Below are positions 1 to 30,991 of a DNA stretch of 64,000 nucleotides, piece after piece. The notes below the pieces were generated by a model, which worked only from the letters and a program-made list of their open reading frames with translations, made no database searches and was not told where the DNA came from. Location: IMG/VR virus record IMGVR_UViG_3300021255_003843, positions 32,001 to 96,000 of that record; one strand, given 5' to 3'. Position numbers and translations under genes: made by a program. The stretch comes from a virus. Taxonomy: Duplodnaviria > Caudoviricetes. Within the stretch, counting starts at the first letter, position 1. Every line of letters starts with the position of its first letter.

Positions 1-1947
1 AATTTTCATTAGTCCATATGCATTGGGGCCGGTAGCAATTGGTACATTAGCGACACCGTCGCTCACGATACTCGTTCCATCAATCTGTACATCTTGTACT
101 GGCGCTTCGTGTATATCTTCTAACGCCGGCGCTCCGATCATATTTCTGATAGCTGCTTTAGCTTCATCTGTGTAAGTACCAACAGCGTTATCTGATTGAG
201 ATTGCGTAATATCGCCAGCGGCCTTGGCTAAACCGTAGAAAGCTGATTCGTGTTGTCTACCAGCGATAATAGGTCTGAAAACATCTGTGCCTTGTTTTAT
301 AATTATTGAATTGGCTCCTGCAATTGCTAGCTGTTCAGTATTAAGCATTACTATGCCATTGCTTCCAACTACTTTGACAACACCGGCTTTATTCGTCGTA
401 GCGTAATCATCAAACTGTACATAATTACTCAAATCAATTGTCGCACTGCCGAACTGTTCCCACTTATTGTTCAGATATACCCATTCAATATACAGGTTGT
501 CTCCTTCACCACCTGGAACTAAATAGAAATAATTCCTGTCAGGTTCTGCGATCGTCGGTATACCGGTAGCGCTGTCGTATTCAGAAGCAGAGCAGATATG
601 GATCTTCATATTATCTACTAACGTAGCGATCTCTGCTTTATCGTCTTCTGTCAGATTATACGCATCGCCTTGCGGGCCTTGCGCTTCTACACCACTGTCT
701 ACATACGCATTTGTCTGCTGATTCCAGACATGCCACATACCGTTCTCGATCTTCGGACTGTGTGCTACAGCGGCTACTGCTGTATCTTTTGCGGCTTCAG
801 CATTACGCTGCGCCGTCTCTGCTGCCGTCTTTGCTGCGACGGCGTTATCTGCCGCCGTCGCAGCAGCAACAGCGCTGTCTTTAATATTATCGGCGTAGCT
901 CTTTGCTTCTGTCGCCGATCTCTCAGCGTTTGCCTGAGCGCTTATCGCTTTATTCGCCGACAAGCCAGCAGCTTCTTCACTATCTTGTGCGTCATCTGCG
1001 CTTTGCTTTGCCGACGTCATCGCGACCTCAGCTCGCTGAGCATAATTAAGCGCATCATCTTTCGCATCTAAAGCCGCCAACTTCGCTTGATCTGCTTTTT
1101 CAGCAGATTGCGCGGCTTCATTTGCTTTGTTCACTGCCGCCTGCTTTGCAGCTTCGGCGGCTTCCTTACTTTGCTGCGCAGCCGCCGCGTTCGAAGCGGC
1201 GGTCTGCGCGCTCGTAGCAGATTCTGTCGCGCTGTTAAGGCTTAACTGTGCCGCGTTGATAGATGTCTGAGCTGACGCTTTCGCCGCGTCTCGCGCAGTT
1301 TCAGCAGCAGCCTGTGCGTCTTCTGCTTTATCCTGCGCGGCTTCAGATTTAGCCTGAGCTTCTTCTGCCTTACGTTGCGCAAGCTCCGCCGCGTTCTTAT
1401 AATTCAAAGCGTCTTCAGCAGAATTGTTCGAAGACTCGGCAGACAACTGTGCGTTGTCTCTCGCAGCTTCGGCTTTGTTTTGCGCATCCTCGGCAGCTTC
1501 CTTTGCGGCAACAGCTTCAGATAAAGCTGTTGCCGTAGCTTCTACGTCTTCGCCGGTCTGCTTTACAGCTTTGTTTAGTTCGACGATTGCTTCTGCGATC
1601 GCCGTTTGTTCTTCAGGTAAAGGTTCTTCGTCGGTAATCGTAGCGCGGTTAGAGATCGGAATAATAATCTGCGCTACAGTTTCACCGCTTGTTTCTGTCG
1701 CATGCAGATAAAGCCATGCATATATTTCTTTGCCTGGCTGAAAGTATTCTCTTGGTATTAGTACACCATCAGCATTGCCGATCTGGGTTTTCGATTCGCC
1801 GTTGATCTCGTTGCTGAAATGTACCTCATATGCAGGCGGCAGGTCTACGCCGACAAGTTTCAGTATCTGGCCGTAGTTAAAACGGAACAGTGTTCGCGTT
1901 TTACAAAAGCTTGATTTGCCTATGTCGGCAACAACAATGTTATCCAA
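1..1947 (-). CDS. Tail/baseplate fibre-like protein with BppU-like N-terminus and long Ala-rich coiled coil (partial, runs off window edge)
   Basis: Not in ORF track. TTG start at 1947 after GAGGTG. Translates MDNIVVADIGKSSFCKTRTLFRFNYGQILKLVGVDLPPAYEVHFSN..., then an Ala/Glu/Lys-rich region; the same frame reads DVQIDGTSIVSDGVANVP...LMKI at the window edge. Confidence 0.7.
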   Translation of the reverse strand, partial: MDNIVVADIGKSSFCKTRTLFRFNYGQILKLVGVDLPPAYEVHFSNEINGESKTQIGNADGVLIPREYFQPGKEIYAWLYLHATETSGETVAQIIIPISNRATITDEEPLPEEQTAIAEAIVELNKAVKQTGEDVEATATALSEAVAAKEAAEDAQNKAEAARDNAQLSAESSNNSAEDALNYKNAAELAQRKAEEAQAKSEAAQDKAEDAQAAAETARDAAKASAQTSINAAQLSLNSATESATSAQTAASNAAAAQQSKEAAEAAKQAAVNKANEAAQSAEKADQAKLAALDAKDDALNYAQRAEVAMTSAKQSADDAQDSEEAAGLSANKAISAQANAERSATEAKSYADNIKDSAVAAATAADNAVAAKTAAETAQRNAEAAKDTAVAAVAHSPKIENGMWHVWNQQTNAYVDSGVEAQGPQGDAYNLTEDDKAEIATLVDNMKIHICSASEYDSATGIPTIAEPDRNYFYLVPGGEGDNLYIEWVYLNNKWEQFGSATIDLSNYVQFDDYATTNKAGVVKVVGSNGIVMLNTEQLAIAGANSIIIKQGTDVFRPIIAGRQHESAFYGLAKAAGDITQSQSDNAVGTYTDEAKAAIRNMIGAPALEDIHEAPVQDVQIDGTSIVSDGVANVPIATGPNAYGLMKI

Positions 1948-14048: not shown

Positions 14049-17000
14049 TTAGAAAGAATAGCTCATCGTATTAAAGCCTTGCTTCGAAAGCTCTTTAACA
14101 AACTTCTGTCCAACACGCTGCGCGACCTCGTCAAAGTCGGCGTCATCCTTGAACTGAGCTTCTGTGATGTTGATCACAAGCTCGCCAATGTTCTGGCTGT
14201 TTCCACTGAACGAGTTGCTGTCGATATTGCTGATTGTAGAACGATAACGCACAACCTTTGCCTCGTCTAAGAAGCTGCGTATCAGAGCGGTATCGTCGGC
14301 GCTAAGGAAAGCTTCGGGCTTAGCTTTAGTGCCGTCAACCCAGGCGGGACCAGTGAAATCAACTAAACCACCGGAATCAAAGCCAAATAATTTCTTAACG
14401 TTATCGGCCAGTTTGTTGGCAGTAGCAGATATTGTTTGAGCAACTTTACTCGTTGAACCAATTTTGTCTGTGCCAGAAGAAGCAGTGTCGTAATGAAGAG
14501 CTCTGGAATTGTCAACGTAAGCGCCATTGTTATCTTGAACATTGATCCTGTCAGCGTCTGTTGTGGTATTCGCATTATTGCCAGACCCAGAACCGGATCC
14601 AGATTTCTTACTCGATCCATTTGTCCCAATCCCGCTCAGACCATTATCGCTATGACTATAGACAGCATCACGCTTTTGCGCAGCAATCCAGTTATCATAC
14701 ATCTCGCCCCAATCGTAAAGCATTTGTTTCTGCTCATCCTCTGAAGCATTGATGTAATCCTGACTTGCCATCATGTAATTCAGGAACAAGTCTTTGCCGC
14801 TCAAGATATCAGCGATTTCTTCCCAGTAAGTGTGCGTATAACCAATCATTTGCTCGTAGGTGTCGATCCAACCCTGGATCATCTGCTTCTGCGCAGCGTC
14901 CATTGCTAAGCCGTACTCTTCTACGTTAGCCTTCAACCAATCGAGCATACCTTCCTGGCTCATCTGCATTACCTGGTTTACCTCGTCAGCCAGATTGTTG
15001 GCGTCTTCAAGCCAGGCTTCAAGATCTTCGCCGCCGTAGTTAACGAAATCATCGTAAGCCTGCAGCTGGCTATCGATCTGTTCCTTTTGGTAATCAGCTT
15101 CATCTTCGGCAACATCCCATGCAATCTCTTTCTCGATCTTCGCAATCTGCTCTCTCAGCTTTGCGGCATCCTTTGTGCGGGTGCTGTCCATCTCAATCAA
15201 CGCAAGCTGTTTCTTGTACTCAGAAAGCTCTTCATACTTCTCAGCTTCGTCTTCAGCGTCTTTTCTACGCTGAAGACGTTCGTCAATCAGATTCTTTTCT
15301 TCTTCAAGCGCAGCGCGTTTCTTCTCGATGTCTTTCTCAATCAAAGCCCACTCAGCGCGATAGCGCGCACGGATCGCTTCGATGATGGCGTCTTGCATGC
15401 TGACAGTACCGGCAAGCATATCACGCTCGCGCTGGATACGGTTGTTAATCTCAGTGTCAACCTCGGTTTCAAGATCGGTATGCAGCTTCAGTATCGCCTG
15501 TTCGTTCTCTTCAATCTTCTTTGTATTCTCCTGAATCGCGATGTTTGCTTCCTCGATCGCTTCTTCATAAGCGAGTACACTGTCATACAGGCTCTTCCAA
15601 TCGTCGCTGTTCTTCTTCGTCCTTGCCATCTGCTTCTTCGTTGTTTCGATATGCTTCTCAAGCGTAGCAATCAGGCGCTTCTGAGCATCGTTCTCAAGCT
15701 CGATCATCCGGTTCTGGTTGCCTATCTCGCTGGCGTTTTCATACTTTGTCTCTTGATACTGGATCATCTTAATCTCGTGATTCAGCAGAGCTTGTTCGCG
15801 CTTCAGGCGTTCAAGCAGTTTCTGAGCAGCGGACTTACCTCCGCCGCCTCCGCCGCCTCCACCACCGCTACGTCCTTTACCAAGATCGGTAGTCTGGAAC
15901 TGTAGTTTAATATTGCTGCCGTCGGATGTAACGACACCAGTTGCTTGCATACCCATTCGCGAAAGTGTTGCCATGATCTCTTGAATTTGAGCTTGCGCTG
16001 CACCAGTTGCTTCGTTGGCAAGCTGAGACAAGTCAACAGTTACTTGACCTTTATCAACCAGCAACTGAATTTGGGATCCGTCCAAACCAAGATTCTGCAG
16101 TTTCTCGTTGAACGTACCTTGCAGACCTTCTGTCAACATGGTGCCAGCAGTATTCAGATAATTGTCAATCGCTTGCTTATCTTCAGTTTCCCAATCTTTA
16201 ATTGCTTGCTGTACAGGGGTGCCGCCTTTTCTTAAATCTTTTTTATCTAAGCCAGTACCTTGCGCAATAGCAGAGAGCACGTCGTTACTTCTATCACCTT
16301 TTTTGTATTTCTCTCGATAATACTGATTGTTAGCGATAGCATTGATGCCCTGCCGGAACGATTTCATATATGCATTAGAATCTTTAATGTCTCCGCTAAG
16401 TGCTCTAACGCCGCTTGCAATATCTTTTGAAGCTTTATTAAATTTATTATACTGTTCAATCTTTCTTGCAGAGAACTCGCCGTTCAAGGCGGTCATATCA
16501 TATGTAAAATCCTCTGTTGCATTGCCGATCGCATAAAGAAGATCAGCTCCACCTTCAATATCACTCAACCATTGAGCAAAATCTTCGTGACTTGCTATAT
16601 AAGATTGAACAGTAGCAAGCTGTTCTGTGTTTAAATTTAGCGAACTGCTTGTACCAAATCCTTCACCAAATTGCTGCCTGGCAATTTCCATATTGTTATT
16701 GAATAATTGATCTCGATAAAGAGGAGCATAGCCAGTGCCTTGGATCAGGGCATTCCGCATCTGGTCATATGTCCATCCGTGCTCGCTATTATAAAAGATT
16801 TCATCAAAGCCGCTGCCAAGCATACGAGCTCCTTCGTCCTTCTTCAGATAATCTAAAAGCTCGGCGTCGCTATTGATGGCCGCTATCAGAGATTCCTGAT
16901 CTGAACTTTGCATAGCCAATCTTGCCAAACGGTTCTTATATGTCTCCGCTTCTTTTTCAGGTTCAACATTAGCTGCTGCACCTTGCGTTAAGATTTCATA

Positions 17001-20000
17001 AGCAGTTCTGTTATCAGTTATTTCGCTAATGCCAGTAATTTGTCCATCTTTCTCTGTCAGCTGTAACCCAGACATATCAAGCAGTTGTTCGACAAGCTCT
17101 CTAATTTTTTGATTGCCATCCTTAGCCAGATCTGAAAGGCTACTGAGCTCAGGGAAAGCTCCAACAATTGCTGCTTCCAAACTATCTCGTATCTTTTGTT
17201 GATCGCCTTTTAAATCTTTTGCAAGATCTTTCAGTTTTTCAGGTGTCTTTTTATATTCTTTTATTTCTTCATCTGTGAGTTGAGCTTTTGTCTGTAGGTA
17301 CTCCCAATCAGTCTCAGTAAGATTAGCTTGATTATCATACATTGTTTGAGCGATTTGAGCTGCTTGACTTGTGCGTTGAAGCTCAGAGCCTTCTGCGCTT
17401 ATTAATCTTCTCTCTTCTCTGGTGGGTCCTTTTGTACGATCAATGTCTGCAAGCCTCTGCGCAAGTTCAGCGCTACCAGCTTTCAGCTCTCCATTGCGTT
17501 CTCGCTCATAAACAGTTTGATAAGCAGACCCGGCTTTAAGCGCATCTATCTGATATTTCTCAAGCTGCTGCCCAGACATCACAGCAGAGTAAGCTTCGTT
17601 AAAGCCCTGCACGTTATTTGTCAGATAATCAAGCATCGTCGGGTTATTCTTTCTCAACTCTTCGAGCTTTGCCTTGTCGCCATTGAGAGCAGCTGTAATG
17701 TATTCAGATACACCGGACGTTGTCATCCTCGTAGCGTTCGGAGCCGTAATACCGTACGCGCCGTTCAACAGCATGGCGCGAATAGCGTCAACGTCGCCTC
17801 GCTCTATAGCCGCAAGGAAATCAGTGTTACTAAGTAGATCTGTCGCAGCGGTTGTTTTATATCCATTTGTACGCTGTACTAAATCGACATAACTTCTGAA
17901 ATCGCCTAAATTGCCATTACTCAGTTCGAAAGAATTCAGCATTGCTTGATAATCAGTGCTTTGATCTCCCTGTCCAAGCGCTGCTCTTGTATCCAGCGCT
18001 CGTGCCAATTGCTGAGCCCATGTCAACTGCGCGTCAGCTTTGCCGCCATACTGCATCTGCCATTGCCCATTCTCGCCGCGCACAATTTCACCAAGCTGAG
18101 AAGCACGAAGTCGTTGATTCACTTCAGCTACTTGAGCATCTGTCATGCCAGTAATCATATCGCTTGTAGACTTCTGCGTCCTACCAGGCTTAGACATCCC
18201 AAGCATTACCTTGATGCGCTCTAAGAAGCCTTCTGGTTGCTTAGTTTCGTATGCGGCATCACCAAGCTGATCCACCAATATTTGGTCGACAGCTGTGCTG
18301 ACAGTAGTGTTGCGAAGCTTCTCAACCTCTTCCATTGCATATCCGTAATCATTTGCTAAGCTGCGTTCACCAGACTGATATTGCGCAATAACGTTGTCGC
18401 CAATATTAAAGGCATTCTTGATCGTATTCCAATCCTCTGGCCGCTGTATTCCTTGACCAGAAGTTAAGCGTTTATAAGCCTGCTGCACCTCATCGAGGTT
18501 AGTGATCTGCTGTCCAAGCTGATTCATCTGGCTAATGCTATCAATGATATTGCCGTTAGCAATCGTCGTCAGTTGATTACTGAGACCAGATAACACTTTA
18601 CCTTCTTCTTCGAGTGCGCCGATTACCTCATTGCGTATCGCATCGGCCAAAGTCTTAGCAGCTTTGGCCGCAGCTTCGCTGTCAGAGCCATACGTCGCAA
18701 GATAATCAAATAAACCAGGGAAGCTCTTTAACTGGCTTTGAATACCATCTTCTAATCCTGCAAACATATCTTTCGCACCGTCGCCAGCTTCCATCAGCTT
18801 ACTGATTTCTTCCAGCGTTTTGGCAGTTGTCATTTGCGGAGTATAACCAACAAACGGATTATCTGTAAACGATTCCTGCGCTTTCTTTTTTAGATCGTCT
18901 AATTCCTTTTGATCAACTGTTTCTCCATTGTTTTGTTTTTCAATTAACTGCAAATATCTGAGAAGCTCAGACGATTGACCAAGCTGACCAAGATATTTTT
19001 CACCAGCCTGCTGCAAGCTCATATTATTATCAAGCACATCTTTTATCATCGCTCTATTGGAAGCGTTTGAGAAAACACCGCTTGTGTTATACAAATTTTT
19101 CCAGTTATCATACCATAAGCCTTGCAATAAACTTTCTCCATTTTTTCCGACAAGATTACCGTTTTCATCAAACGACAGCCCGAGCCCGCTCATCACGTCA
19201 GAACCTACATCCGAATTGGCCGCATTAAGCAAGCTAATAAAAGCAGGTAAATACTGATTTTGTCTTATAAGCTCTTCACCGACGGACAGTTTTAAATCAT
19301 CCCAATTGTCTGCAGTAACTTCTTTATCAAACCCAGAAAAACTCTTCATCGATTCTATAAAGCTTTGTGCTTCTGCAAAGTCATATGATTTCTCTTGTAT
19401 GTCAGACATCTGTTGAATTGTACTAACCCAGTTGTTAATACCTTCGGTGGCAGTTTTTATCTCATCATCTGTTCCGTATAAGCCAGTAATCCAACCAGCT
19501 TGATCAGAAGTGATCCGGCTTAATGCCTGCAAGCGATTTAAGTTACGAGTATTGTACGCCTTTCGATACTCAGCTTCCGCTAACTGGTATTCGTCAGCTT
19601 CTCTATTTCCTATCAATCCAGACATTGTATATACATTTGACAAGATTCCAGAACCGCTGTTGTTCTGCCATATTGCCTGTTCAGTCGGAGTTAAATTATT
19701 CTCTATATATTTACCAAACGCTTGCGGTGTCGCAAATTGATTAGAGCTTATTAATCCATAGAGCTTATTAGCCAATTCATACTGGCTGTTTTCAGATTGC
19801 ATTGCTTTATACGGATTGTACAAGCTTCTGTTCTCATAAGTCAATCCGCTTAAATCTGATAAAGTCTTGCGATCAAACAGGCCATATGCGCCGCTATAAT
19901 CACTATATCTCGCGTTTAATCCAAGCTTGTTCATAGCAGCGTCAAGAATAGGAGTTCCGTATTGCGCACCAAGATAATCATAACTGTAAGCAGCATCGTT

Positions 20001-23000
20001 CTGAGCTTGTAACAATCTCGCATTTAAGTCCGTTGAGGCCCCTGTCATCGTAATATTTCTATGCGTTACATCAGCGTTTATAAAATCATTTTTGTTAATA
20101 CCGATTAAGCTGAACAAGTTTTCGTCAATAGCATCCAGTTCTGTACCATTGTTAAGATATTGACTGATTGTATTGTATGCTACAACCCTGTCATACACAT
20201 CGTTAATATTCTGTACCATTTTATCTCTAAGCGCTTCGCGGCTTGTTGTTTGAGCTGAACCATGTCCTTCAGATAAAGCTTGAATCACCATATTCGTAAG
20301 CCCATCGGACACTTGGCCACTTCTTTCTTGTAATCTTAACCATGCTGTCTTTAAGATATCCAAAGCGTTATTTCTATCGGCGGTAATCTTGCTGCTATTC
20401 AATGTTGTAATAGCGTTTGCAACATCCGATCCATACACACTGGTTATCGCAGCCAGCTCGTCTTCTGTAAGCTGAACATTAAAATTACCGCTGTTTAATT
20501 GGGCGGCGGCTTTAAGTACAAGCTTTTGAGCCTGCTCTTCTGTTGTAGCCATCGACGCTTGGTTGATATCAAAAGCAGCGTTCGGTCTGTTGTAATTAAC
20601 AGAGTTAAACCAATTTTCTTGGAACCCTTTGCCGTTCGTAAGACCCAGCTGCTCAGCTTGCGCCTGAGTCATTAAACCGGCGTGAATCGCAGAGCCATAT
20701 GTGTTTACCAAAGCTTGTCTATAATCACTGCTGTTCAAATACGCCACATACTCTCGAGCAGCTGCGGCTTCATTGCCAAAGAAATCTTTGTCGCTCTTGC
20801 CAGCGTAAGTAGAAGATCCGGCTTTAATAAGCTCCTGATATTGAGACGGAATATTTGCCCAAGCAATAGTGCCAGAAGCTAACCGATTTGCAAACTGTCC
20901 GGCGATCGCTTGATTACGCATGGTTTCAAGTTCTGTGTTGAAAGTTGTTTGCGCCTCATGTTTCTGAATTCCATTTCTTGAAAACTGGTCAGCTAACTCA
21001 ACGAGATCCTTGATCAGCGTACCGGCTTTCAAAACTTCTTCTATGCCTTCAGACTTAAACTTGATCTTAATCTCAGTTTCTAACTCTTTCTTGCGTGCCG
21101 CATCAGTAGTGTTTATCCACTCATACAGCTCTGGATATGCACTCTTGATCTCGTTTAAATACTCTCCATATTTTTTCTTAGCTTCATCGGCATTAAGATC
21201 AAAGTTGACAATATTTGAAGCGACAGATCTCAGCTGTCTGGATGTATAAAAATTGTTGCCGTTAGCGGCCAGAGGATTTTCTTCGACATATCCTTGACCG
21301 GTATATGTTGTTGAAAATTGTTTATCTTGTCCGATAGTTGTTCTATAACCAGCAGATTTTGCGGCCTGCGTAAACTGCTGAAACTCTTGTCGAGTAGACT
21401 CGTCGGTTATACTATTCGCGTAAAGTTCCATAATTCTATCAGTAAAATCAAGGCCTTTATTTTCTTTTCTGAGCTTATTCCACTCTTCTTCATCCATTGA
21501 TTTAACGAAACCGCCAAGCAGATCTTGCATATAAACATTGAACCCGTGCGCACTTTCTTCTCTTGCTTTATTTAATCTGCTATTTTCAAGTGTCATGTAC
21601 AAACCTCTGTTTGCATCAAAGTTTGTCCTATTAACACCCCACTGTTTAGCAATTAAATCGTATTGATCCGCACTCGCAGTACCAGCATTTATAGCATTGT
21701 ATGCAGCAAGTTCTTGACCATAACTCATATTACCAGACAAAATACTGGCCGTATAATCCGTTAAAGAGCTTTGTAAAACTTTACCTTGTAAATAATCTCT
21801 GAATTGATCCAACGTATATTTGCCGGTGCCAACTTTAAGATCTTTAATCATTTTAGCAAACTCTGCGTCGTTTGTCATAACGCCCGTCAGATTAGGTATT
21901 TGTTTTTCAACATTGGATATCATATCAGCCATATCTTGATAAGAGCTGGCTTGCATGGCATATGACAACACATTTTTATATACATCTGTATATTCTTTAT
22001 CATTTAAACTATAATCATTAACAAATTGATCTAAATTTCGATAAGCATTTAATCCAGCTGAAGTTTTTATTCTATTTATGTCAAAATCATCGTAATTTAA
22101 TTCAATAATATCAGACGTTTTTTGAATTATTGATTGTTTATAATTGCGATATGCTTCTTCAGCTTTATCTAAATCGTCAAAACCAAACAATTGCTTTCCA
22201 TTTTCATCGGTGTAGAAATATTTGTATTTATTATTTGCTTTCTTAGCTGCATCCTGGAATTGTTGTGGTGCTTTATATGTATTTAAATATCTTTGTAAAG
22301 ATTCATGTAATGCATCTGGCAAATCTTCAGGCAATACTTGAGCAGTATCTTTCAATAATTGATCCTTTAAATATTTCCGCGCTTCTTCATCTCCGCCAGT
22401 TAAGCTATCTGTATCTCCAAGAATTTGACCTATAAAAGTATCAACTTCTTCTTCTCGCTGTTGTTGATAAGCGTCGGTATATAATTTCTGAATTCCTTGT
22501 CCTTTTGACCCAATTAAATAATTCCTAAACGAGTTTAAGAACTCTTTTTGATGTTCAGGATTAAGATGCGTGATCGACGTAAATACATTTTCTGAAAACC
22601 TGGCTCTCGTTTCATTTCCAAGTTTCTTTAAAAAACTGACGCCATCATCAGTATTTAAGTATATCTTAAATTTATCGTTTAATTTAGGATCATTAACATC
22701 TATGCCGAGCATTGAAAACAATGCCTTTTGATAGAATTCTTCATATGCTTTTTCAGAAGAAAGATCAATATCGTAAATACTATCAGGCATTATATCCGCA
22801 TAATCAAATGTTATTGCAGAAGTTGCATCAGCAATGTCAGAAGGCAACGTACCAGATGCCCAGTTGACCAAATATTTTTCATTTAATGAAGTACCTACAT
22901 TTTTATGTTCAACAGAATGTTGCGATGCATTATAAGCATCTCTTAATTTATCTGGTTTATACGCCGCTTCATAAGCAGCATATTTCATATCAATAGTATC

Positions 23001-26000
23001 TTCATCTATGTCTCTTTGTAATTTATCTATATGATCCTGACCTTGAGTAACAAATATTTTCCAATTTTTGCCAGCTTCTTCTGCGCTTTCAAATCCTTTC
23101 TTAACACCGTCAAGCGTACCAGCTAAATCGTTAAGAGAACCTATAAAAGCCTGTTGATCAGAAGCGGACATATTGCCCTTTGCTTTTTCCCAAGCCTCGC
23201 CATATTTCTGAACTTCATCAATTTGTTTCTGTAAAGGTTGTAAACCTTCTTTTCTGTTTTTAGAATAAGAATCAGCTAGCTTAATTTGCTGTTGAGCCTT
23301 TAATGTCGGGTCGTTTTGATCTACAAAATTTTTACGAGCGGAACCGATAGCTCCGGCAACACCAAGAACACCAGCGATCGCGACAACGGAAGCCAGTGTG
23401 CTAACCAGACCCGCCGCGCCTTTGAAAGTGTTAGAGGCAGCATTAACGATCAGCAGTTTAGTGGCTAGCGCAGCAAGCGCGCCGCCAATCACAACAGCAG
23501 CGGTAGACACAGGCCCAGCAACAGACGTGAGATCTTTCAGTCCACCGACAAAGCCAGTAACCATATCGACAGAGCTCACAAAGAACTGGTTGCTCGACAT
23601 GCTTGAAACCAAGCCATCGTAAGTAGCCTTCAATTCTTCCATCGCAGCCGTAATACTCTTCACAGCGATAGCATACTTGCTATCTGTCGTGCCTTCACTA
23701 TTCTCGGCTAAGCCAAGTAATCTGTCTAACTCAGCACCGCCGTCTTCTCCCATGCCTTCCATCAAGGTCTGGAACACGTTCGTCTGCCTGCCGCCAGCCA
23801 TTGTATACGTAATGTTATTGCGCTGAATATCATTCAGACTTCCCCAAACCTTAGACAGATCGCGAAGCACATCGAAGCTGTTTCTAAAGCTCTTGCCACC
23901 GCTTTCACGTAACTGAATGCCAGCGCCGGACAGAGCTTTTTCAACATCGTTGATTGACACGGAAGCGCCCGTCTCGTCGTTGACATAACCCTGATTCGTA
24001 ACACGATTCATGCGTGAGAAGATCGTCTGCATAGCAGTACCGATTACCTGGCCGCTCATCTGAGTTTTACTGATACCGATCGTCAGCATTGACGTTAATT
24101 CTTCGTAGCTGACACCAGCAACCTTCGCAGCGGCAGCGGACTTCTGCATACCCTTGAAGATCTCATTAGCTGTCGTAGCCGCGCTGTCGCCCAAAGCGGT
24201 CAGCGCGTCCATCGCTTCTTCAGCGGAGTTTACGAGGCCGTTCTGTATAGCAGTGGTGATTGCCTTGCCGGCGTCTGTCACCTTTGCGCCAGTAACGGTG
24301 GCGAATTTGATGATCGCGCCAGTACGGTCCTCTACCTGCTGGTCATTTAAACCCTGGCGATAAAGGTCCGACTCAACGGATGCAACGTTAGCAACGCTCG
24401 TCTTCAGCTCGATAGCGCGATCGACCGTCGCCTTTTTGACAGCCTGCATCTGCTCATCCGTCTTCATCGTAATCGCCTGGATGCCACGCATCTGGCTATC
24501 AAACTGCACAACAAAGTTCTTAGCTTCGGTAAACGCCTGACGGATCATCTTCCTGCCGAAGCTCTGCAGCAGTTTATCCGCAGCGGTTGCCGCCGTCTCT
24601 AAACCGGCAGCAAGCATATTGCCAATTGTCTTGAAGTTGCCGGCAGTGTCGCCGAACTCCTTCATTGCTTCCTTCGTGCTCTCGAGTGCCTCACGATAAT
24701 GGTCAAGACTTGCCGTAGCAGAATCATATTGAGCCTGCGCAAGGTTCCTGTCTTCGTCGGTAGCGGCATTATCAATAGCGTTCTTGGCAGCAAGCTGCTG
24801 TTCTTCCATCCGCTTGACCATCATATCGTTGTAGTTATATTGGCTACGATACTGATCATACATGTTCTGACGCTGGAGGTAAGTGCGACTCAGAGGATCA
24901 ATTGCAGTTCTCGATTGCCAGTTGCGGTTCATCTGCTCGACCTGCATCTCGGCACGCTTAGCTTGCATGATCTCTTGTTCGCCGCGAAGCTCTGCCTGCT
25001 TCTGACGCTGGCGAATACGCTCGTTGTAAGCAGCTTCTTCGCGTTTCACGTAATCATCGTTAAAGCGTTCAAGCGGCTTAAGGCGCTCATCTTTTTGTTC
25101 TTGTGTCAGATCAGACTTGCGGATTCTGTCAGCAATCTTGCGAGCATTATCTACATTTTTCTGCGCTTTATCTCTGACAGCTTCAACACCTTCAAGATAC
25201 CTCGAGACATCAATATTTTGCTCGTCGTATTTACGCTTATAATCTTCGAAGGTAGTGTTTACTATCTTCGCTTCATCTTCTGTAATAAACCCAGTCTTCT
25301 GTTTCTTCCGGTTGATCCTGGCTTGCTCTTCTCTAAAATCAAGGAAAGATTTTTCTTTATCAATATCGTATTTATCAACATCGGCCATGTAGGTGCTTAA
25401 CACCTGAGCAACGCGAGCTCTATCCTGCAGTTTAAGATGCTGCTGTTGAAACATCGTATTCTCGTCGATTTGCTGAGTAAGCACAGAATACGGTTCCATC
25501 TTCTTAGCAACTTCTTCGTCGCTCATGCCTTGATCTTTATATACTTTCTCCAACCTTTCACTCAGCTGAGAAACAACTTCTTTCGCTTCGTTTGCTCCTT
25601 GCTTCAGCTGCTGGAACGGGTCTTTGATAACAGTACCTTTTATTTTATCAAGCAGATTTGTTATATCTGCTTCTTTCATCTTGCCAGTTTCTTCTCTCGC
25701 ACCAGCAAGATAAGTGTCAGTTTCTGCTAAACGCTCTTCGTAAAGTTTTCGCTCAGCTGGGCTGAACGGATACTTCTCACGATCCTGCAAATGTTTCTGA
25801 AGTTCATTGCGATAATCTTCGACAGCCTGCAGCTGGTTGTTATACTCTTCGAACTGAACATCGAGCGCGGAAACTTTATTGGCACGCTTACGATTTGTTT
25901 TATCTAGATTCTCATATAAGCGTTTTGCTTTAAGTTCAGTGGTGTCAGCAAAGTCTTGATTCATCTGCTGCATCAAGTCTTTGCGTCCACCAACCAATTC

Positions 26001-29000
26001 TTTAAACTCCTGCTTCATGGCAGGCGGCAGCTGATCAAACTCTTCGCCATTCTTAATAAAATCTTCAAGCTGTCTATAAACAAAGCCAACGTTCGCAGCC
26101 CTGCTTCCGTAATAAGTTTCTGCTTGAGACTTACCTTCAAGCTCATTCTCTTTCTTTAGAAGACCAGACAAGAACTGCTGCTTCACGCTGTCAACACTGG
26201 ACCGCAAAGTGTTAGCATGTTCTTGAGCTTGAATGTAAGTATAAGCCTTACCAAGTTGAGCATTCTCATCTAAGATACGCTGACGTTGCGCTGTTATATC
26301 GCGATAAGCCTGCATATCAATCCCGCTGCCAGCAGCGAGTTGATCAACTTCGTCGTATACGCGCGCTACTTGAGCAGCTTCGGCCTCGGCTTTCGCGAGA
26401 TCACCGTCTACCGCGTAAATACGTTTAGAAGCTTCAATAGCCTCTTCTTTTGTCATATCCGGAGAATAGCGAGCCTGATCTTCCTGCGGCAACGTACTCT
26501 TGATCTGATTCATCTGCTCTTCGTGCTGTTTCGTCTCGATCTCAATACGCTGTAATTCAGCTTGATTCTCCTGTAGCTTTTTCTCAACTGCTTCACGCTG
26601 CAGCACGGTATCCTTGCCAGTGAAAGTAAAATCTAAACCGCCCTTCTGCCCTAAGAATAATTCTGGCAGAAGCTTCGCAGGATCGTCTGTACGGAACACA
26701 GAGCTAATATTTGGCTGGTTGATACCTCTTTCGATGAAACCCTGGGCTGCAGTAATACCATATTCGTTCATCTTCTTTTGAACATAAGAATCGAACGAAA
26801 CCTCAGAGCCATCTTCCATTTTAATCATGCCACCTTGGGCTTTTTGATATGCTTCTTCCTCGATTTCACGCTTAGATGCTATAATCATAGCCTGCATATC
26901 ATCAAGCTCTTCTGCAGACATCGGAGCCATCGGGTTAGCAATATCATACGCCTTCATTGTGCGAAGGTTCTTCATCAACGCTTGCGTTGTTTCGCCTGCT
27001 CCGCCATAACCCATATGTTCAAGAGCTTGAAGCAGAGCGTACGTGCGTTCCATATTGACGCCTTTAGACGCAACCTGAGATACAGCGCGCATTGTTCCAA
27101 CGTCTGTTGTGTTAAAAATAGAACGGAAGTTGATCTTATCAAAACCAAGATCGCGAAGTTCCTTCATGTTGATAGGAATCTCATGTCCGTTTACTGTTGC
27201 GGTGTAGATGTCCTCAGGAGAAGGAACATCCATGTTGTCGCGGCCTGTTACGTTAAACAGGCGACTAAAACGAGACGGAAGCTTAGACCATTGAGCACCA
27301 GCGTATAAAGCCTTCTTCATCTGAGGAGTTGCTTCAGTAGATGTAGCGTGCTTTAACCCGGCGGTAGCTTGGTCGTAAGTAGGTGTGCTTTGAATTGCCG
27401 CTGCTAAAAGATCTTTATTTTCAGGAGCGTATATATCAAACATTGCTGCACGACGCGCAGAAGCGTCGGCAGCACCCATTTCGTTTGTAACATCTTGACT
27501 TGTTTGAAAGAATAAACGACGATGAAGCGGATTGTCTACATTTTTAGCCGCTTCGGCAGGCATATCTACCTTCTTAATAATGGGCTCCGTACTTCCTTCA
27601 AAATCCTGAATGGCTTTTTCTTGAATGGCAACTACTTCAGCAAACGCTTCAGCTAAATCGCCATAAATCGTTTTTGCTTTATCCCCATCTAAGTCTGCGC
27701 TACCAAGCGTCGCCAAATCCGCCTCAGAAGCGAATAAGCCACTCGTAGTTTGCCCGAAAACTTTATATATATCTCTCGCTAAATTAGCATAGTTTTTGCC
27801 AACAACAAAGTTGCCAAACAGAGAAGGGCTTCTTTGAACAGCAACTTTTTTAGCATCAGGTCTGGCAAAGTCAACAAGTTGACCCTTGTTTAATGCGAAC
27901 ACACCTTCGAGATCTTCGTCACTAATGGTTAAAGCTGTGCCAGTTTTTTCTTGATATTGTTGACGGATTCTTTTCAGCAAGTCAGACCTACTAAGGCCAT
28001 TGATCGTTTCAAGACCTAGTATGGACGCCAGAGGAGACTTATTGATAGTCTGGTTAATAACAGAAGGGTTTGTACCAAAATCTATCCATTCACCAGAAGA
28101 CATGCGCTCTGTCAATGATTCAATCTCGTTCTGCACCCAGCTTTGCACGGCACTGCTGTTCACGTTTAGCTTGCCGCTTCTGATCTGCTTACCGAGATAG
28201 TTGTCAGGATCAGCAAACAAATATTCTCTGATGCCAGCCTCAGAACTTAACAGGTTGATGCGTCTATCAAATTCGTCGATTTGTTGTTGACGCATCTTCG
28301 GACTGAGGTTCATAAAGGCCATTGCTTGAGTGCCGATACCTTTTGCTCTTGTTTCAGCATCATCATATGTGCTCATACTCGACATGCCATAATGCTGAAG
28401 CATCGCCGTAAAACCTTTGCTGATCTCTTCAGGAGTGTGGAAGTTCGAGTACGCCTGCATGTTTTTAATCGTAGAAGCATCAACGAAGCCATGGTAATCG
28501 GTTAAGTCAATGTTGCCGCCAACGCCAGGCAAGATAAACCGACCGTTGGCGTCCGTTAAGCCGGCAGCTTTTGCCCATTCGCCAACAGTCTTATAACCGG
28601 AGATTTGGTGGAACGTACCCTTGCCGGCAACACCCATACGGCCCTGGAAATCTTTTTCAGGTAGAATACCATCCATGAACCAGCCGATACCATCGGCAAG
28701 CTTCTGCTTCACATTTTCATCATTGATTTGAGACAGATCAACAACAGCAAAGTTGCGATTCTTGAAATTGCCATGTGTGTCCCAGCTGTTTGACCAACCT
28801 TTACCGGTTGCATCGAAGTGTTTTCTCAAGCTTTCAATGTCTTTGAATTCATAAGCAGAATCAACGAAATCATTCCAGAAATTAGCGCCCTTACCGTCGG
28901 CAGTTACAAAGCCATGCTTCTGAGCCCATTCCTGCTCACGCTTCATGACAGCTTCATAAGCTTGCTGCTCAATCATGCGGACACCAGCATGAGTACCAGT

Positions 29001-30410
29001 GCCGTGCATATTCTGAGCAATATACCTCTTGCCGCTCGGACCAATAGGCACAGCCTTGCCACTCAGCAACTCTTCAATAAAAGCCTGCTGTTTCGGATCA
29101 TTTCGATCATAACCATCAGCGCTGACAAAGATGACCTTGTCAGTAAAATCATTATGATGGCCTTCAAGGCCGAGCATTCTCGTGTTCTGCGATTCACTGA
29201 GCATGACGCGAGAACTTTTTCCGGTATTATTAAACAGATCGCCGACAGTGTATTTAGCAATCTCATATTGCTCAAGCATATGCTTTGTAGATCTACCGAG
29301 CTTCTCAAAACCTCTGCCAAGAGATCCCGCGTCAGACCAATCTTTGTCAGAACCAATGCCGTCAATGTCACTCATGATGCTAAGCAGACGGCCGGCAGAA
29401 GAAGAGGTCATGCGGCTTACAAGCTGGCGTGCCTCTTTGCTCGTCATATCTTCTAAGCCTTTGAAAATATCAACACGCTGGCTATCTCTGCCAGAAGCTC
29501 GCTTCACGAAAGACGTGAACAGGTTACGCCTGAAATCATCAAGCATCTGCGGAGTGATTTCTCTAATCAGAGACAGTTCACCATTGTCCTCAAGTTTCGT
29601 CATGCCTTTGACGCCGTAAGCAGCTCTCGCGGCTTCATCATTGTCTCTGATTAAATCTCTGAGCTGCGTTCGATTGTAGGCAGACAGGATGCGAGAACCA
29701 CTCGGCATTGCCATAGAAGTATAGCCTTTATTCTTATAACTCTCCCTGAAACTTGCAGGAAGCAGGTCTACAGGCTGAGCAGTGGTGTTATTATTCCTGA
29801 GAATATGCCCATACCTTGCGCGCTGATATTCTGCGGTGTTAAAAGCAGGAAGAACGTTCGGGATCAGAGCTTCAACATATTTCTGATAGACATCGCTGCG
29901 AGTAATGCCGCCATGTCCCTTAGACATAAAGAACTCTTCAAAGGGTTTACTCTTCACGAACTCTCCGGCGGCCGTCTTAGCTGTCAAGCCAGCTAAGCGT
30001 GACGCCTGAGCTTTCAGCATAGAGGACAACTCGCCGGTTTCAGCGCTCAACTGCTGTCTGATCGTTTGCGAAAATCCATCAACAATGGATTTCGCAAACG
30101 ACGCTCCGAAAGCACCGTCCTGCCCAAACAGAGAGCTCATAGTCCCAAGCTCTTTCAAACCACTCTGCACATCTTGTACAAAATCCTGGTCATCGGTTCT
30201 ATTATTTAAGCGCGCCTTCGAGATTTTTTCTTGCAGCATATCTACGATCGAACTTGCGCGCTCAAGGCCTTCGTTTAATGCGCCCGTCATACTCGGCGCG
30301 TCTTCAAACGAGGTGCGAAGTTCGTTAAACTCTTGCTTAAAGTTCCGTAGTTGGCCTACAGCTTTATCAAGGTCTAACACTTCTACACTCAAAGATAGTT
30401 TGTCAGACAA
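14049..30410 (-). CDS. Giant tape measure protein (5453 aa) with N-terminal two-barrel RNA polymerase-like domain
   Basis: TMP core (FDSQM...LYRQG...ALGDSAATT...GTAMQTIFSRM, ~23.7-24.5 kb); C-terminal coiled coil and FDSGG..DFTG.AWVDGT..KPEAFL; upstream of Dit. N-terminal RNAP motifs D573-G, R591/K597-G, R860-S-P, D906-L-D-G-D910. Confidence 0.9.
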   Translation of the reverse strand: MSDKLSLSVEVLDLDKAVGQLRNFKQEFNELRTSFEDAPSMTGALNEGLERASSIVDMLQEKISKARLNNRTDDQDFVQDVQSGLKELGTMSSLFGQDGAFGASFAKSIVDGFSQTIRQQLSAETGELSSMLKAQASRLAGLTAKTAAGEFVKSKPFEEFFMSKGHGGITRSDVYQKYVEALIPNVLPAFNTAEYQRARYGHILRNNNTTAQPVDLLPASFRESYKNKGYTSMAMPSGSRILSAYNRTQLRDLIRDNDEAARAAYGVKGMTKLEDNGELSLIREITPQMLDDFRRNLFTSFVKRASGRDSQRVDIFKGLEDMTSKEARQLVSRMTSSSAGRLLSIMSDIDGIGSDKDWSDAGSLGRGFEKLGRSTKHMLEQYEIAKYTVGDLFNNTGKSSRVMLSESQNTRMLGLEGHHNDFTDKVIFVSADGYDRNDPKQQAFIEELLSGKAVPIGPSGKRYIAQNMHGTGTHAGVRMIEQQAYEAVMKREQEWAQKHGFVTADGKGANFWNDFVDSAYEFKDIESLRKHFDATGKGWSNSWDTHGNFKNRNFAVVDLSQINDENVKQKLADGIGWFMDGILPEKDFQGRMGVAGKGTFHQISGYKTVGEWAKAAGLTDANGRFILPGVGGNIDLTDYHGFVDASTIKNMQAYSNFHTPEEISKGFTAMLQHYGMSSMSTYDDAETRAKGIGTQAMAFMNLSPKMRQQQIDEFDRRINLLSSEAGIREYLFADPDNYLGKQIRSGKLNVNSSAVQSWVQNEIESLTERMSSGEWIDFGTNPSVINQTINKSPLASILGLETINGLSRSDLLKRIRQQYQEKTGTALTISDEDLEGVFALNKGQLVDFARPDAKKVAVQRSPSLFGNFVVGKNYANLARDIYKVFGQTTSGLFASEADLATLGSADLDGDKAKTIYGDLAEAFAEVVAIQEKAIQDFEGSTEPIIKKVDMPAEAAKNVDNPLHRRLFFQTSQDVTNEMGAADASARRAAMFDIYAPENKDLLAAAIQSTPTYDQATAGLKHATSTEATPQMKKALYAGAQWSKLPSRFSRLFNVTGRDNMDVPSPEDIYTATVNGHEIPINMKELRDLGFDKINFRSIFNTTDVGTMRAVSQVASKGVNMERTYALLQALEHMGYGGAGETTQALMKNLRTMKAYDIANPMAPMSAEELDDMQAMIIASKREIEEEAYQKAQGGMIKMEDGSEVSFDSYVQKKMNEYGITAAQGFIERGINQPNISSVFRTDDPAKLLPELFLGQKGGLDFTFTGKDTVLQREAVEKKLQENQAELQRIEIETKQHEEQMNQIKSTLPQEDQARYSPDMTKEEAIEASKRIYAVDGDLAKAEAEAAQVARVYDEVDQLAAGSGIDMQAYRDITAQRQRILDENAQLGKAYTYIQAQEHANTLRSSVDSVKQQFLSGLLKKENELEGKSQAETYYGSRAANVGFVYRQLEDFIKNGEEFDQLPPAMKQEFKELVGGRKDLMQQMNQDFADTTELKAKRLYENLDKTNRKRANKVSALDVQFEEYNNQLQAVEDYRNELQKHLQDREKYPFSPAERKLYEERLAETDTYLAGAREETGKMKEADITNLLDKIKGTVIKDPFQQLKQGANEAKEVVSQLSERLEKVYKDQGMSDEEVAKKMEPYSVLTQQIDENTMFQQQHLKLQDRARVAQVLSTYMADVDKYDIDKEKSFLDFREEQARINRKKQKTGFITEDEAKIVNTTFEDYKRKYDEQNIDVSRYLEGVEAVRDKAQKNVDNARKIADRIRKSDLTQEQKDERLKPLERFNDDYVKREEAAYNERIRQRQKQAELRGEQEIMQAKRAEMQVEQMNRNWQSRTAIDPLSRTYLQRQNMYDQYRSQYNYNDMMVKRMEEQQLAAKNAIDNAATDEDRNLAQAQYDSATASLDHYREALESTKEAMKEFGDTAGNFKTIGNMLAAGLETAATAADKLLQSFGRKMIRQAFTEAKNFVVQFDSQMRGIQAITMKTDEQMQAVKKATVDRAIELKTSVANVASVESDLYRQGLNDQQVEDRTGAIIKFATVTGAKVTDAGKAITTAIQNGLVNSAEEAMDALTALGDSAATTANEIFKGMQKSAAAAKVAGVSYEELTSMLTIGISKTQMSGQVIGTAMQTIFSRMNRVTNQGYVNDETGASVSINDVEKALSGAGIQLRESGGKSFRNSFDVLRDLSKVWGSLNDIQRNNITYTMAGGRQTNVFQTLMEGMGEDGGAELDRLLGLAENSEGTTDSKYAIAVKSITAAMEELKATYDGLVSSMSSNQFFVSSVDMVTGFVGGLKDLTSVAGPVSTAAVVIGGALAALATKLLIVNAASNTFKGAAGLVSTLASVVAIAGVLGVAGAIGSARKNFVDQNDPTLKAQQQIKLADSYSKNRKEGLQPLQKQIDEVQKYGEAWEKAKGNMSASDQQAFIGSLNDLAGTLDGVKKGFESAEEAGKNWKIFVTQGQDHIDKLQRDIDEDTIDMKYAAYEAAYKPDKLRDAYNASQHSVEHKNVGTSLNEKYLVNWASGTLPSDIADATSAITFDYADIMPDSIYDIDLSSEKAYEEFYQKALFSMLGIDVNDPKLNDKFKIYLNTDDGVSFLKKLGNETRARFSENVFTSITHLNPEHQKEFLNSFRNYLIGSKGQGIQKLYTDAYQQQREEEVDTFIGQILGDTDSLTGGDEEARKYLKDQLLKDTAQVLPEDLPDALHESLQRYLNTYKAPQQFQDAAKKANNKYKYFYTDENGKQLFGFDDLDKAEEAYRNYKQSIIQKTSDIIELNYDDFDINRIKTSAGLNAYRNLDQFVNDYSLNDKEYTDVYKNVLSYAMQASSYQDMADMISNVEKQIPNLTGVMTNDAEFAKMIKDLKVGTGKYTLDQFRDYLQGKVLQSSLTDYTASILSGNMSYGQELAAYNAINAGTASADQYDLIAKQWGVNRTNFDANRGLYMTLENSRLNKAREESAHGFNVYMQDLLGGFVKSMDEEEWNKLRKENKGLDFTDRIMELYANSITDESTRQEFQQFTQAAKSAGYRTTIGQDKQFSTTYTGQGYVEENPLAANGNNFYTSRQLRSVASNIVNFDLNADEAKKKYGEYLNEIKSAYPELYEWINTTDAARKKELETEIKIKFKSEGIEEVLKAGTLIKDLVELADQFSRNGIQKHEAQTTFNTELETMRNQAIAGQFANRLASGTIAWANIPSQYQELIKAGSSTYAGKSDKDFFGNEAAAAREYVAYLNSSDYRQALVNTYGSAIHAGLMTQAQAEQLGLTNGKGFQENWFNSVNYNRPNAAFDINQASMATTEEQAQKLVLKAAAQLNSGNFNVQLTEDELAAITSVYGSDVANAITTLNSSKITADRNNALDILKTAWLRLQERSGQVSDGLTNMVIQALSEGHGSAQTTSREALRDKMVQNINDVYDRVVAYNTISQYLNNGTELDAIDENLFSLIGINKNDFINADVTHRNITMTGASTDLNARLLQAQNDAAYSYDYLGAQYGTPILDAAMNKLGLNARYSDYSGAYGLFDRKTLSDLSGLTYENRSLYNPYKAMQSENSQYELANKLYGLISSNQFATPQAFGKYIENNLTPTEQAIWQNNSGSGILSNVYTMSGLIGNREADEYQLAEAEYRKAYNTRNLNRLQALSRITSDQAGWITGLYGTDDEIKTATEGINNWVSTIQQMSDIQEKSYDFAEAQSFIESMKSFSGFDKEVTADNWDDLKLSVGEELIRQNQYLPAFISLLNAANSDVGSDVMSGLGLSFDENGNLVGKNGESLLQGLWYDNWKNLYNTSGVFSNASNRAMIKDVLDNNMSLQQAGEKYLGQLGQSSELLRYLQLIEKQNNGETVDQKELDDLKKKAQESFTDNPFVGYTPQMTTAKTLEEISKLMEAGDGAKDMFAGLEDGIQSQLKSFPGLFDYLATYGSDSEAAAKAAKTLADAIRNEVIGALEEEGKVLSGLSNQLTTIANGNIIDSISQMNQLGQQITNLDEVQQAYKRLTSGQGIQRPEDWNTIKNAFNIGDNVIAQYQSGERSLANDYGYAMEEVEKLRNTTVSTAVDQILVDQLGDAAYETKQPEGFLERIKVMLGMSKPGRTQKSTSDMITGMTDAQVAEVNQRLRASQLGEIVRGENGQWQMQYGGKADAQLTWAQQLARALDTRAALGQGDQSTDYQAMLNSFELSNGNLGDFRSYVDLVQRTNGYKTTAATDLLSNTDFLAAIERGDVDAIRAMLLNGAYGITAPNATRMTTSGVSEYITAALNGDKAKLEELRKNNPTMLDYLTNNVQGFNEAYSAVMSGQQLEKYQIDALKAGSAYQTVYERERNGELKAGSAELAQRLADIDRTKGPTREERRLISAEGSELQRTSQAAQIAQTMYDNQANLTETDWEYLQTKAQLTDEEIKEYKKTPEKLKDLAKDLKGDQQKIRDSLEAAIVGAFPELSSLSDLAKDGNQKIRELVEQLLDMSGLQLTEKDGQITGISEITDNRTAYEILTQGAAANVEPEKEAETYKNRLARLAMQSSDQESLIAAINSDAELLDYLKKDEGARMLGSGFDEIFYNSEHGWTYDQMRNALIQGTGYAPLYRDQLFNNNMEIARQQFGEGFGTSSSLNLNTEQLATVQSYIASHEDFAQWLSDIEGGADLLYAIGNATEDFTYDMTALNGEFSARKIEQYNKFNKASKDIASGVRALSGDIKDSNAYMKSFRQGINAIANNQYYREKYKKGDRSNDVLSAIAQGTGLDKKDLRKGGTPVQQAIKDWETEDKQAIDNYLNTAGTMLTEGLQGTFNEKLQNLGLDGSQIQLLVDKGQVTVDLSQLANEATGAAQAQIQEIMATLSRMGMQATGVVTSDGSNIKLQFQTTDLGKGRSGGGGGGGGGGKSAAQKLLERLKREQALLNHEIKMIQYQETKYENASEIGNQNRMIELENDAQKRLIATLEKHIETTKKQMARTKKNSDDWKSLYDSVLAYEEAIEEANIAIQENTKKIEENEQAILKLHTDLETEVDTEINNRIQRERDMLAGTVSMQDAIIEAIRARYRAEWALIEKDIEKKRAALEEEKNLIDERLQRRKDAEDEAEKYEELSEYKKQLALIEMDSTRTKDAAKLREQIAKIEKEIAWDVAEDEADYQKEQIDSQLQAYDDFVNYGGEDLEAWLEDANNLADEVNQVMQMSQEGMLDWLKANVEEYGLAMDAAQKQMIQGWIDTYEQMIGYTHTYWEEIADILSGKDLFLNYMMASQDYINASEDEQKQMLYDWGEMYDNWIAAQKRDAVYSHSDNGLSGIGTNGSSKKSGSGSGSGNNANTTTDADRINVQDNNGAYVDNSRALHYDTASSGTDKIGSTSKVAQTISATANKLADNVKKLFGFDSGGLVDFTGPAWVDGTKAKPEAFLSADDTALIRSFLDEAKVVRYRSTISNIDSNSFSGNSQNIGELVINITEAQFKDDADFDEVAQRVGQKFVKELSKQGFNTMSYSF

Positions 30411-30982: not shown

Positions 30983-30991
30983 CGGATACTC

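Follow-up and report, generated by a model that had tools for sequence, protein, structure and literature searches.

The tape measure protein (TMP) of the Thermus phage P23-45, gp96, is 5,002 residues long, and its N-terminal ~1,100 residues form an active, virion-borne two-barrel RNA polymerase (RNAP) (Chaban et al., 2024; PMC10770324). This polymerase transcribes the pre-early genes, including the gene of the non-virion RNAP gp64, and antibodies to the polymerase part detect gp96 in P23-45 virions. It has a short disordered connector (residues 613-679), and because it is flat and clamp-less it has been argued to fit passage through the tail; coupling of transcription to translocation was also proposed (Chaban et al., 2024). 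In phage SPbeta, YonO transcribes the late genes, is a strict DNA-dependent RNAP and is inactive as a 3D>3N mutant (Forrest et al., 2017; PMC5467207). We analyzed a 64,000-nucleotide stretch (the window; bases 32001-96000 of the single 105,495-bp virus contig IMGVR_UViG_3300021255_003843, 47.9% GC), which holds the gene of a 5453-aa TMP. A sequence-only reading of this DNA had proposed a two-barrel RNAP hidden in the N-terminus of that TMP, and had correctly cited P23-45, with its TMP-fused gp96 and its non-virion gp64, as the precedent. We consider it quite probable that residues 1 to ~1,230 of the TMP are a complete single-chain two-barrel RNAP, distantly related to YonO, which is delivered by the tail and transcribes the first phage genes. 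In the literature we found no TMP-fused RNAP reported outside the Thermus phages. The survey of viruses with two RNAPs by Chaban et al. (2024) includes YonO-type pairs from a small number of uncultured siphoviruses; a term search of its supplements revealed no TMP fusion.

The giant TMP gene (P0001) lies on the minus strand at window 14049..30410, as do all TMP features given below; its start codon is TTG, and an AAGGAGG sequence precedes this by 7 nt. It was recognized from its open reading frame (ORF), its Pfam and PHROG matches and the gene order. A PhageMin_Tail domain (PF10145) occupies aa ~2000-2206 (window 23793..24413) and scores 88.6 bits (cut-off 33.2; E 6.5e-25), and ten PHROG TMP families match the protein. 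Two hydrophobic, putatively membrane-inserting segments at aa 2296-2325 and 2330-2359 (window 23334..23525) are the sole segments of the TMP with a Kyte-Doolittle 19-mer mean >2.1. The gene is placed between the tail tube/chaperone genes and the Dit and Tal-like genes. Judged by PF10145, the PHROG matches, the hydrophobic segments and the gene order, the product is a genuine tape measure protein.

A HMMER scan with TMP aa 1-1200 against 1.84 billion cluster representatives gave 84 matches, of which 30 were proteins of 3,699-6,777 aa and the others fragments from short contigs. In nearly all of the 30 giant homologues the match begins at the very N-terminus of the protein and extends across ~1,200 positions, with identities of about 26-46%; the homologues of the N-terminal module are all metagenomic and all without annotation. 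On an alignment of 32 N-termini, conservation reaches ~aa 1230 and then collapses, and the conserved module (aa 1 to ~1230; window 26721..30410) is common to all giant homologues. At the five homologue loci, from other metagenomes, the giant gene occupies the TMP slot of an SPbeta-type tail module in every case, and these loci carry the Pfam families YonB, YomU_Tube, YomW, YomX_C and YOMG_N, which are SPbeta structural genes. By these Pfam families and its own stand-alone YonO homologues (see below) the phage is an SPbeta-like siphophage, as the sequence-only reading had called it. An independent 19,189-nt Logan contig covers window 24500-31385 with 0 differences, and a goat-gut contig, ~10% divergent with differences mostly three bases apart, spans the end of the polymerase module. 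Since these two contigs bridge the region, the fusion is not an assembly artefact.

Re-translation placed all motifs that had been read in the TMP N-terminus where they had been claimed. They are LADGIG at aa 571-576 (D573), FQGRMGVAGKG at 588-598 (R591, K597), STIKN at 646-650 (S646..K649), GTQ at 693-695, VQRSP at 858-862 (R860) and GSADLDGD at 903-910. The DLDGD within the last of these (aa 906-910, nt 27681-27695) is the sole D.DGD in the whole 5453-aa protein. The motifs form the most conserved columns among the 32 aligned homologues. Invariant in all 32 are S407, K537, G574, Q589, R591, K597, G598, K649, G693, Q695, P862, N873, D906, D908, D910, Y1012 and K1020, whilst R860 is kept in 94% and D573 in 91% of the sequences; the conserved signature of the family is DxDxD, not DxDGD. 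The sequence-only reading had named a lack of motif conservation in homologous TMPs as grounds for giving up the RNAP, and the catalytic positions proved to be invariant. Judged from these alignments, both the polymerase-TMP fusion and the catalytic residues have been kept in some 30 giant TMPs of SPbeta-like phages despite the divergence of these proteins.

The same motifs had been reported in the same order in a stand-alone polymerase beginning at window position 47478, and we located them there, in P0002 (836 aa; window 47478..49988, plus strand): TDGI 197-200, RAPMVKG 228-234, TRCP 444-447 and DFDGD 489-493. The claimed spacing from the arginine to the first aspartate was also verified (46 aa in the TMP vs 44 aa in P0002). 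P0002 is a divergent YonO-type RNAP by its match to phrog_8308 (E 4.4e-58) and by tblastn against SPbeta yonO (24% identity, E down to 2e-14). The stand-alone polymerase named by the sequence-only reading is thus real, but the genome has two, the second just outside the window. This second one, P0087 (947 aa, DVDGD at 583; genome 97324-100167 = L003:3324-6167, plus strand), is the YonO orthologue, matching phrog_8308 at E 1.5e-174, SPbeta YonO at 35% identity (E 1e-121) and Pfam RdRP above threshold. The published filter of Chaban et al. (2024), [RK]xPx{20,100}DxDxD, run on every ORF of >=300 aa in the whole 105-kb genome, picked exactly three proteins, namely the TMP, P0002 and P0087. On these sequence criteria the genome appears to encode three two-barrel polymerases, one of them as a TMP domain.

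Direct searches with the TMP N-terminus returned no relevant Pfam family, no PHROG (E <=0.01) and no PDB match by phmmer, the sole Pfam trace being an unrelated, sub-threshold HBM (E 0.09). A profile hmmsearch of the family alignment against the PDB gave chance matches only (E >0.04), tblastn of the module against 50,697 INPHARED phages gave no match, and a single-protein search of GTDB genomes and IMG/VR found no relatives of the TMP N-terminus. Among 29 family members, two weakly matched Pfam RdRP, the only Pfam family matched by more than one member. The N-terminus does not match the hidden Markov model (HMM) of PHROG 8308, and its homology to YonO is visible only profile-to-profile.

For that comparison, the YonO profile was made from six sequences (SPbeta YonO, those of Clostridium phage D-1873, Psychrobacillus phage Perkons and Enterocloster phage CB473P1, P0002 and P0087). 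HHalign of the 32-sequence TMP family against the YonO family gave a probability of 95.5-96.7% and E values of 1.4e-8 to 3.4e-10 over 445-538 columns, spanning TMP 388-1034 against P0087 119-699. Six motifs stand in register (DG, QxR..KG, S.IK, GTQ/YQ, RSP and DxDGD): the first-barrel region of the TMP aligns to YonO tDG, R..w.KG and SQ.K, and DLDGD aligns to DVDGD/DNDGD. Against SPbeta YonO alone the TMP family still reached 93.2% and E 3e-7. Reversed and column-shuffled control YonO profiles gave E 0.5-0.9. Because block-shuffled profiles recovered only the DxDGD block (E >=0.08), the score depends on the colinear motifs. The significance does vary with the composition of the YonO alignment, as discussed below, and we regard this profile signal as real, though composition-dependent. 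When an HMM of the TMP module was run in six frames over phage genomes, yonO was the only match in D-1873 (E 4e-6), Perkons (E 1.5e-3) and SPbeta (E 5e-3), and the CB473P1 and P23-45 genomes gave nothing.

The fold was modeled with AlphaFold2 from the family alignment. Residues 1-1200 (the long model) gave a mean predicted local distance difference test score (pLDDT) of 84.8 and a predicted template modeling score (pTM) of 0.81; aa 380-1050 (the core model) gave a pLDDT of 94.2 and a pTM of 0.91. At E <=1e-3, Foldseek against the PDB returned only chains of QDE-1 (best E 1.8e-12) and RDR2 (E 1.5e-9), followed by Thermus phage gp62/gp64, phi14:2 gp66, the AR9 non-virion RNAP and beta-prime/Rpb1 chains. 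With the long model, VIA-align gave RDR2 a Z of 18.3 (515 residues, root-mean-square deviation (rmsd) 4.0 A, model 380..1114), QDE-1 a Z of 15.5 and P23-45 gp64 a Z of 15.1, and Rpb1/beta-prime chains aligned from ~aa 773 to ~aa 1038 at Z ~9. We also carried out an exhaustive VIA-align search of the core model against 48,161 representative PDB chains, independent of Foldseek. Only five chains reached Z >=8, namely RDR2 (16.9), QDE-1 (15.3), P74-26 gp62 (14.6) and two of gp96 (10.8 and 10.1), with Rpb1/beta-prime chains in a lower tier (Z 7-8). The sequence-only reading had proposed checks by AlphaFold/Foldseek or HHpred; those made here with AlphaFold2, Foldseek, VIA-align and HHalign returned a two-barrel RNAP fold and homology to YonO, with confident models whose strong PDB matches are all two-barrel RNAPs covering both barrels. 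A model lacking two barrels, which that reading had named as a refuting outcome, was not obtained.

Both double-psi beta-barrels (DPBBs) can be placed on the model, within an RNAP core at aa ~380-1120 (window 27051..29273) that is outlined by HHalign, VIA-align, the model and the PDB search. The first, DPBB-B, is beta-subunit-like and covers aa ~555-650 (window 28461..28748; boundaries estimated). It carries D573-G574, Q589, R591, K597-G598 and, from STIKN, S646 and K649, with predicted beta strands at 575-579, 587-592, 596-603, 626-629, 632-635 and 641-644. As expected of a beta-like upstream barrel, its R591, K597 and K649 are invariant and align to the R..KG and S..K of YonO. A connector between the barrels (aa ~651-782; window 28065..28460) is folded and mostly helical, contains the invariant G693 and Q695, and has a pLDDT mostly of 75-95 in the long model and >90 in the core model; it may serve as a clamp. 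The second barrel, DPBB-A, is beta-prime-like (aa ~783-917; window 27660..28064) and was delimited by structural superposition. Isolated DPBB domains (the designed 7dww and 7dbo; Cdc48/VAT N-domains) superpose on exactly this segment (core-model 404-538) at Z ~7. It carries R860-S-P862, N873 and the metal-binding loop, where DLDGD (aa 906-910; window 27681..27695) is, by motif, conservation and YonO alignment, the candidate catalytic Asp triad. This barrel thus combines a DxDxD loop with three invariant aspartates and superposition on DPBB and Rpb1 structures. Past it, two long helices in the model (aa 961-988 and 996-1021; window 27348..27530) hold the invariant Y1012 and K1020, and by position would correspond to the bridge helix and the base of the trigger loop. 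The superpositions of RDR2, QDE-1 and gp62 run over aa 380-1047, the upstream barrel included. A face-to-face placement of the barrels, with the Asp triad between them, is only implied, by the whole-core superposition on QDE-1 and RDR2 (rmsd ~4 A, ~500 residues).

In a viral model library, the best matches to the model were uncultured-phage proteins annotated as RNA-dependent RNA polymerase (RdRP). Siphoviridae sp. ctnpt50 appeared twice in this list: the initial segment of its 'minor tail protein' (BFVD A0A8S5SD80_1, Foldseek E 1.2e-4) stood at rank 11, and its own RdRP-annotated protein (A0A8S5SEF1) was the rank 2 viral match. This hints that a fused polymerase-tail protein is perhaps already in GenBank, unrecognized.

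When compared with gp96 (P23-45; also P74-26, G20c and TSP4; PDB 8H2M, 8H2N), the TMP module shares the placement of an RNAP in the first ~1,100-1,200 residues of a ~5,000-residue TMP, a DxDGD loop, the presence of stand-alone two-barrel RNAP(s) elsewhere in the genome, and a related fold (Z 10.8 over 371 aligned residues, gp96 327-1078). The sequences, however, are not detectably related: HHalign gave a probability of 1.3% and aligned the DxDGD block only, and whole-protein blastp gave nothing (E >1). HHalign of the TMP family against gp64 alone also gave nothing. When eleven P23-45 structural proteins were compared with this genome, TerL alone gave a match, and a weak one. The connector of ~130 confidently folded residues is about twice the length of the 67-residue disordered one of gp96. 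P23-45 has one companion polymerase vs two here, and the phage described here is temperate with an integrase, from animal gut, and probably has a Gram-positive host. Structurally, gp96 is farther from the TMP module than are gp62/gp64, QDE-1 and RDR2; neither the Foldseek lists nor the first 50 entries of the VIA-align list that depends on Foldseek contained it, and only the exhaustive search brought it up.

YonO (SPbeta, PHROG 8308) is the closest sequence-profile relative of the module, with six colinear motifs and the same phage lineage. It differs in being a free late-gene transcriber of ~840 aa that is not known as a virion component, and the TMP module has, compared with it, a ~380-aa N-terminal extension and the TMP fusion. 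The best structural matches, QDE-1 and plant RDR2 (cellular RdRPs, PF05183; Z 15-18, 490-530 residues, rmsd ~4 A), are eukaryotic RNA-silencing enzymes at 11-13% identity, and the TMP has no Pfam RdRP match. The gp66 of crAss-like phi14:2 (6VR4) and the N4 virion RNAP (vRNAP) are alike in that the polymerase sits within a very large ejected virion protein. Nevertheless, the structural similarity to phi14:2 gp66, which travels in a podovirus capsid and is not TMP-fused, is weak (Z 7.2, Foldseek E ~0.01-0.05), and N4 vRNAP is a T7-like enzyme of a different fold. Because the module is nearer to YonO, QDE-1 and gp64 than to gp96, and because the two phage groups have no other detectable similarity, the TMP fusion is probably of separate origin from that of the Thermus phages, although both fusions could go back to a very ancient common ancestor.

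Our preferred reading of the module is as follows. The polymerase is read as one chain with the TMP, continuing into the linker, the PhageMin_Tail domain, the two hydrophobic segments and a long C-terminal rod. Its layout would be an N-terminal domain, DPBB-B, the connector, DPBB-A with the DxDxD magnesium loop, and the bridge-helix-like helices. Because the catalytic residues are invariant, we infer that the fused enzyme is active. The polymerase would be built into the tail together with the TMP. In siphophages the TMP is expelled before the DNA and its C-terminus lies at the tail tip. An N-terminal polymerase would be nearest to the leading DNA end, and would reach the envelope or cytoplasm beside the entering end of the genome. 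There, on the analogy with gp96, it would transcribe the pre-early genes as these enter, without host RNAP; packaging, injection and early transcription are all proposed from this same analogy. Transcription would then be handed over to P0002, whose gene opens the early block, and to P0087, which as YonO orthologue would probably transcribe the late genes as in SPbeta. The wider scenario is that SPbeta-like gut phages independently fused a YonO-type enzyme to their TMP, in convergence with the Thermus phages, and run a host-RNAP-free cascade from the TMP-fused RNAP through P0002 to the YonO orthologue. We put this forward tentatively, at somewhat less than an even chance.

Several observations weigh against a tail-delivered, YonO-type polymerase. 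The G909 of DxDGD is not conserved, being A or S in many homologues. With some subsets of the YonO alignment HHalign recovered only a local RSP...DxDGD match at E ~1e-3. The TMP domain looks more like the clamped gp64 and QDE-1 than like the clamp-less gp96, and it is not evident how a folded enzyme of ~135 kDa, with a connector of ~130 structured residues, could be stored in, or pass through, a tail tube. The polymerase could, however, be stored unfolded or at the neck.

This difficulty of passage also speaks for a different course of events, in which the polymerase is active but is cleaved off while the tail is assembled and so never enters the particle, the fusion serving to couple its synthesis to late expression and the enzyme working in the producing cell. 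Proteolytic processing is common among TMPs, and a variable, highly charged linker of ~750 aa separates the polymerase from PhageMin_Tail (aa ~1250-2000; window 24411..26663). This linker is poorly conserved (conservation 0.14-0.23), 42-46% of its residues are E, K, Q, R or D, and no Pfam or PHROG family matches it. On the other hand, two stand-alone polymerases are already available for intracellular work, the fusion is kept in 30/30 full-length homologues with no stand-alone version among the complete proteins, and P23-45 virions do contain the polymerase part by antibody (Chaban et al., 2024). We consider cleavage without packaging unlikely.

We give about the same low probability to a reading in which the polymerase is injected and active with another main job, either pulling the genome in by transcription or making primers or other RNAs. 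The T7 and N4 polymerases draw their genome into the cell through transcription. A polymerase at the TMP end that is proximal to the DNA is well placed for an entry pore, and the coupling proposed by Chaban et al. (2024) is of this kind. For other RNAs, relatives of the QDE-1/RDR type take RNA or single-stranded DNA templates, according to their PDB entry titles. YonO, the nearest sequence relative, is strictly DNA-dependent (Forrest et al., 2017), and this reading overlaps largely with transcription of the first genes by an injected RNAP without excluding it.

Less probable still is a degenerate polymerase relic, acting without catalysis as a structural plug or as a head-proximal anchor of the TMP. 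The variable G909 and the lack of a match to any curated polymerase HMM would fit it. The invariant positions, however, are those expected to be catalytic or substrate-contacting (the three aspartates, R591, K597, K649 and R860/P862) in a family only ~25-45% identical, and a relic is disfavored because a purely structural role would not preserve catalytic positions. Chance motifs or an assembly chimera, conceivable for a 5453-aa low-complexity protein on a metagenomic contig, are ruled out by the failure of the HHalign controls, by a confident fold with strong matches only to RNAPs, by thirty independent homologues from other samples with the fusion, and by the two contigs that bridge the domain boundary.

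The remainder of the TMP has some features of its own. There is no cysteine anywhere in the 5453 residues. Ten consecutive glycines (aa 4849-4858; nt 15837-15866), a run also seen in the homologues, closely precede a conserved C-terminal module of ~600 aa. A muralytic or peptidase domain, such as is known from gp96 and SPbeta YomI, was looked for, and aa 2501-5453 matched no Pfam or PHROG family. At the usual tape-measure ratio of ~0.15 nm per residue, the ~4,200 non-polymerase residues imply that the tail is at least about 600 nm long.

P0002 leads a plus-strand block that is divergent from the structural genes, and P0087 has a Cys-rich C-terminus, probably a zinc finger. In the flanks of the homologue loci that were examined, no stand-alone YonO gene was present. 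Two sets of repeated elements were noted in this genome. The first consists of five hairpins on the plus strand (window 51204, 52208, 53426, 53862 and 54176), each with a perfect, GC-rich 8-bp stem, an AGGA loop and GCCAxGxTG after it; stem differences among them are compensatory. Such hairpins might act as structured ribosome-binding sites, with an ATG/GTG after the stem, or as hairpin promoters of a phage polymerase. The second is a 36-nt AT-rich element with the core CATATATATCnATTCTCGAATGTAATC, present in three copies at window 45602 (plus strand), window 53301 (plus strand) and genome 101390 (minus strand). At least the first copy is preceded by a GC-rich inverted repeat, and one copy precedes the P0002 operon, within the divergent region. 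We regard this element as a candidate promoter for a phage RNAP.

Along the strand of the giant gene, the large terminase, portal and head protein genes are upstream, and Dit (window 12815-13966, minus strand), the Tal-like gene, more tail protein genes and the endolysin gene are downstream. The Tal-like gene (1365 aa) occupies window 8695-12792 on the minus strand. The C-terminus of its product matches a glycerophosphodiester phosphodiesterase PHROG (E 3.7e-10), which suggests teichoic-acid degradation and a Gram-positive host. The contig also encodes a tyrosine integrase (L002:8885-10135), the anaerobic ribonucleotide reductase NrdD (L001:2793-4640) and a nicotinate phosphoribosyltransferase for nicotinamide adenine dinucleotide (NAD) salvage (L002:3978-5201), all on the plus strand, and six tRNA genes. 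Together, the integrase, NrdD and NAD salvage genes indicate a temperate phage of an anaerobe. DNA of this phage is found in animal gut metagenomes, and bovine, goat and sheep gut samples match partially and more divergently. Shortly before the YonO orthologue, a gene for a reverse transcriptase starts at window 63931 (L003:1931-3121, plus strand; Pfam RVT_1, E 8e-18); homologue locus L007 likewise has a reverse transcriptase close to its tail genes.

The only published TMP-fused RNAP belongs to one genus of Thermus phages, Oshimavirus, and the principle itself is therefore already known. What is new is a second lineage, from animal guts and probably Gram-positive hosts, without sequence similarity to the Thermus one. 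It numbers at least 30 protein clusters (50% identity), which are entirely metagenomic and were previously unannotated. This lineage links the YonO enzyme to a virion-delivered form and suggests that the fusion arose more than once. It also raises the physical question of how a polymerase with a seemingly clamp-like connector would travel together with a tape measure, and indicates that annotations of giant 'minor tail proteins' can conceal enzymes. If a cultured member were found, SPbeta/Bacillus genetics would be usable for these relatives. If the independent fusion and the three-polymerase cascade are true, a tail-injected RNAP would be a recurrent solution in long-tailed phages and not a Thermus oddity.

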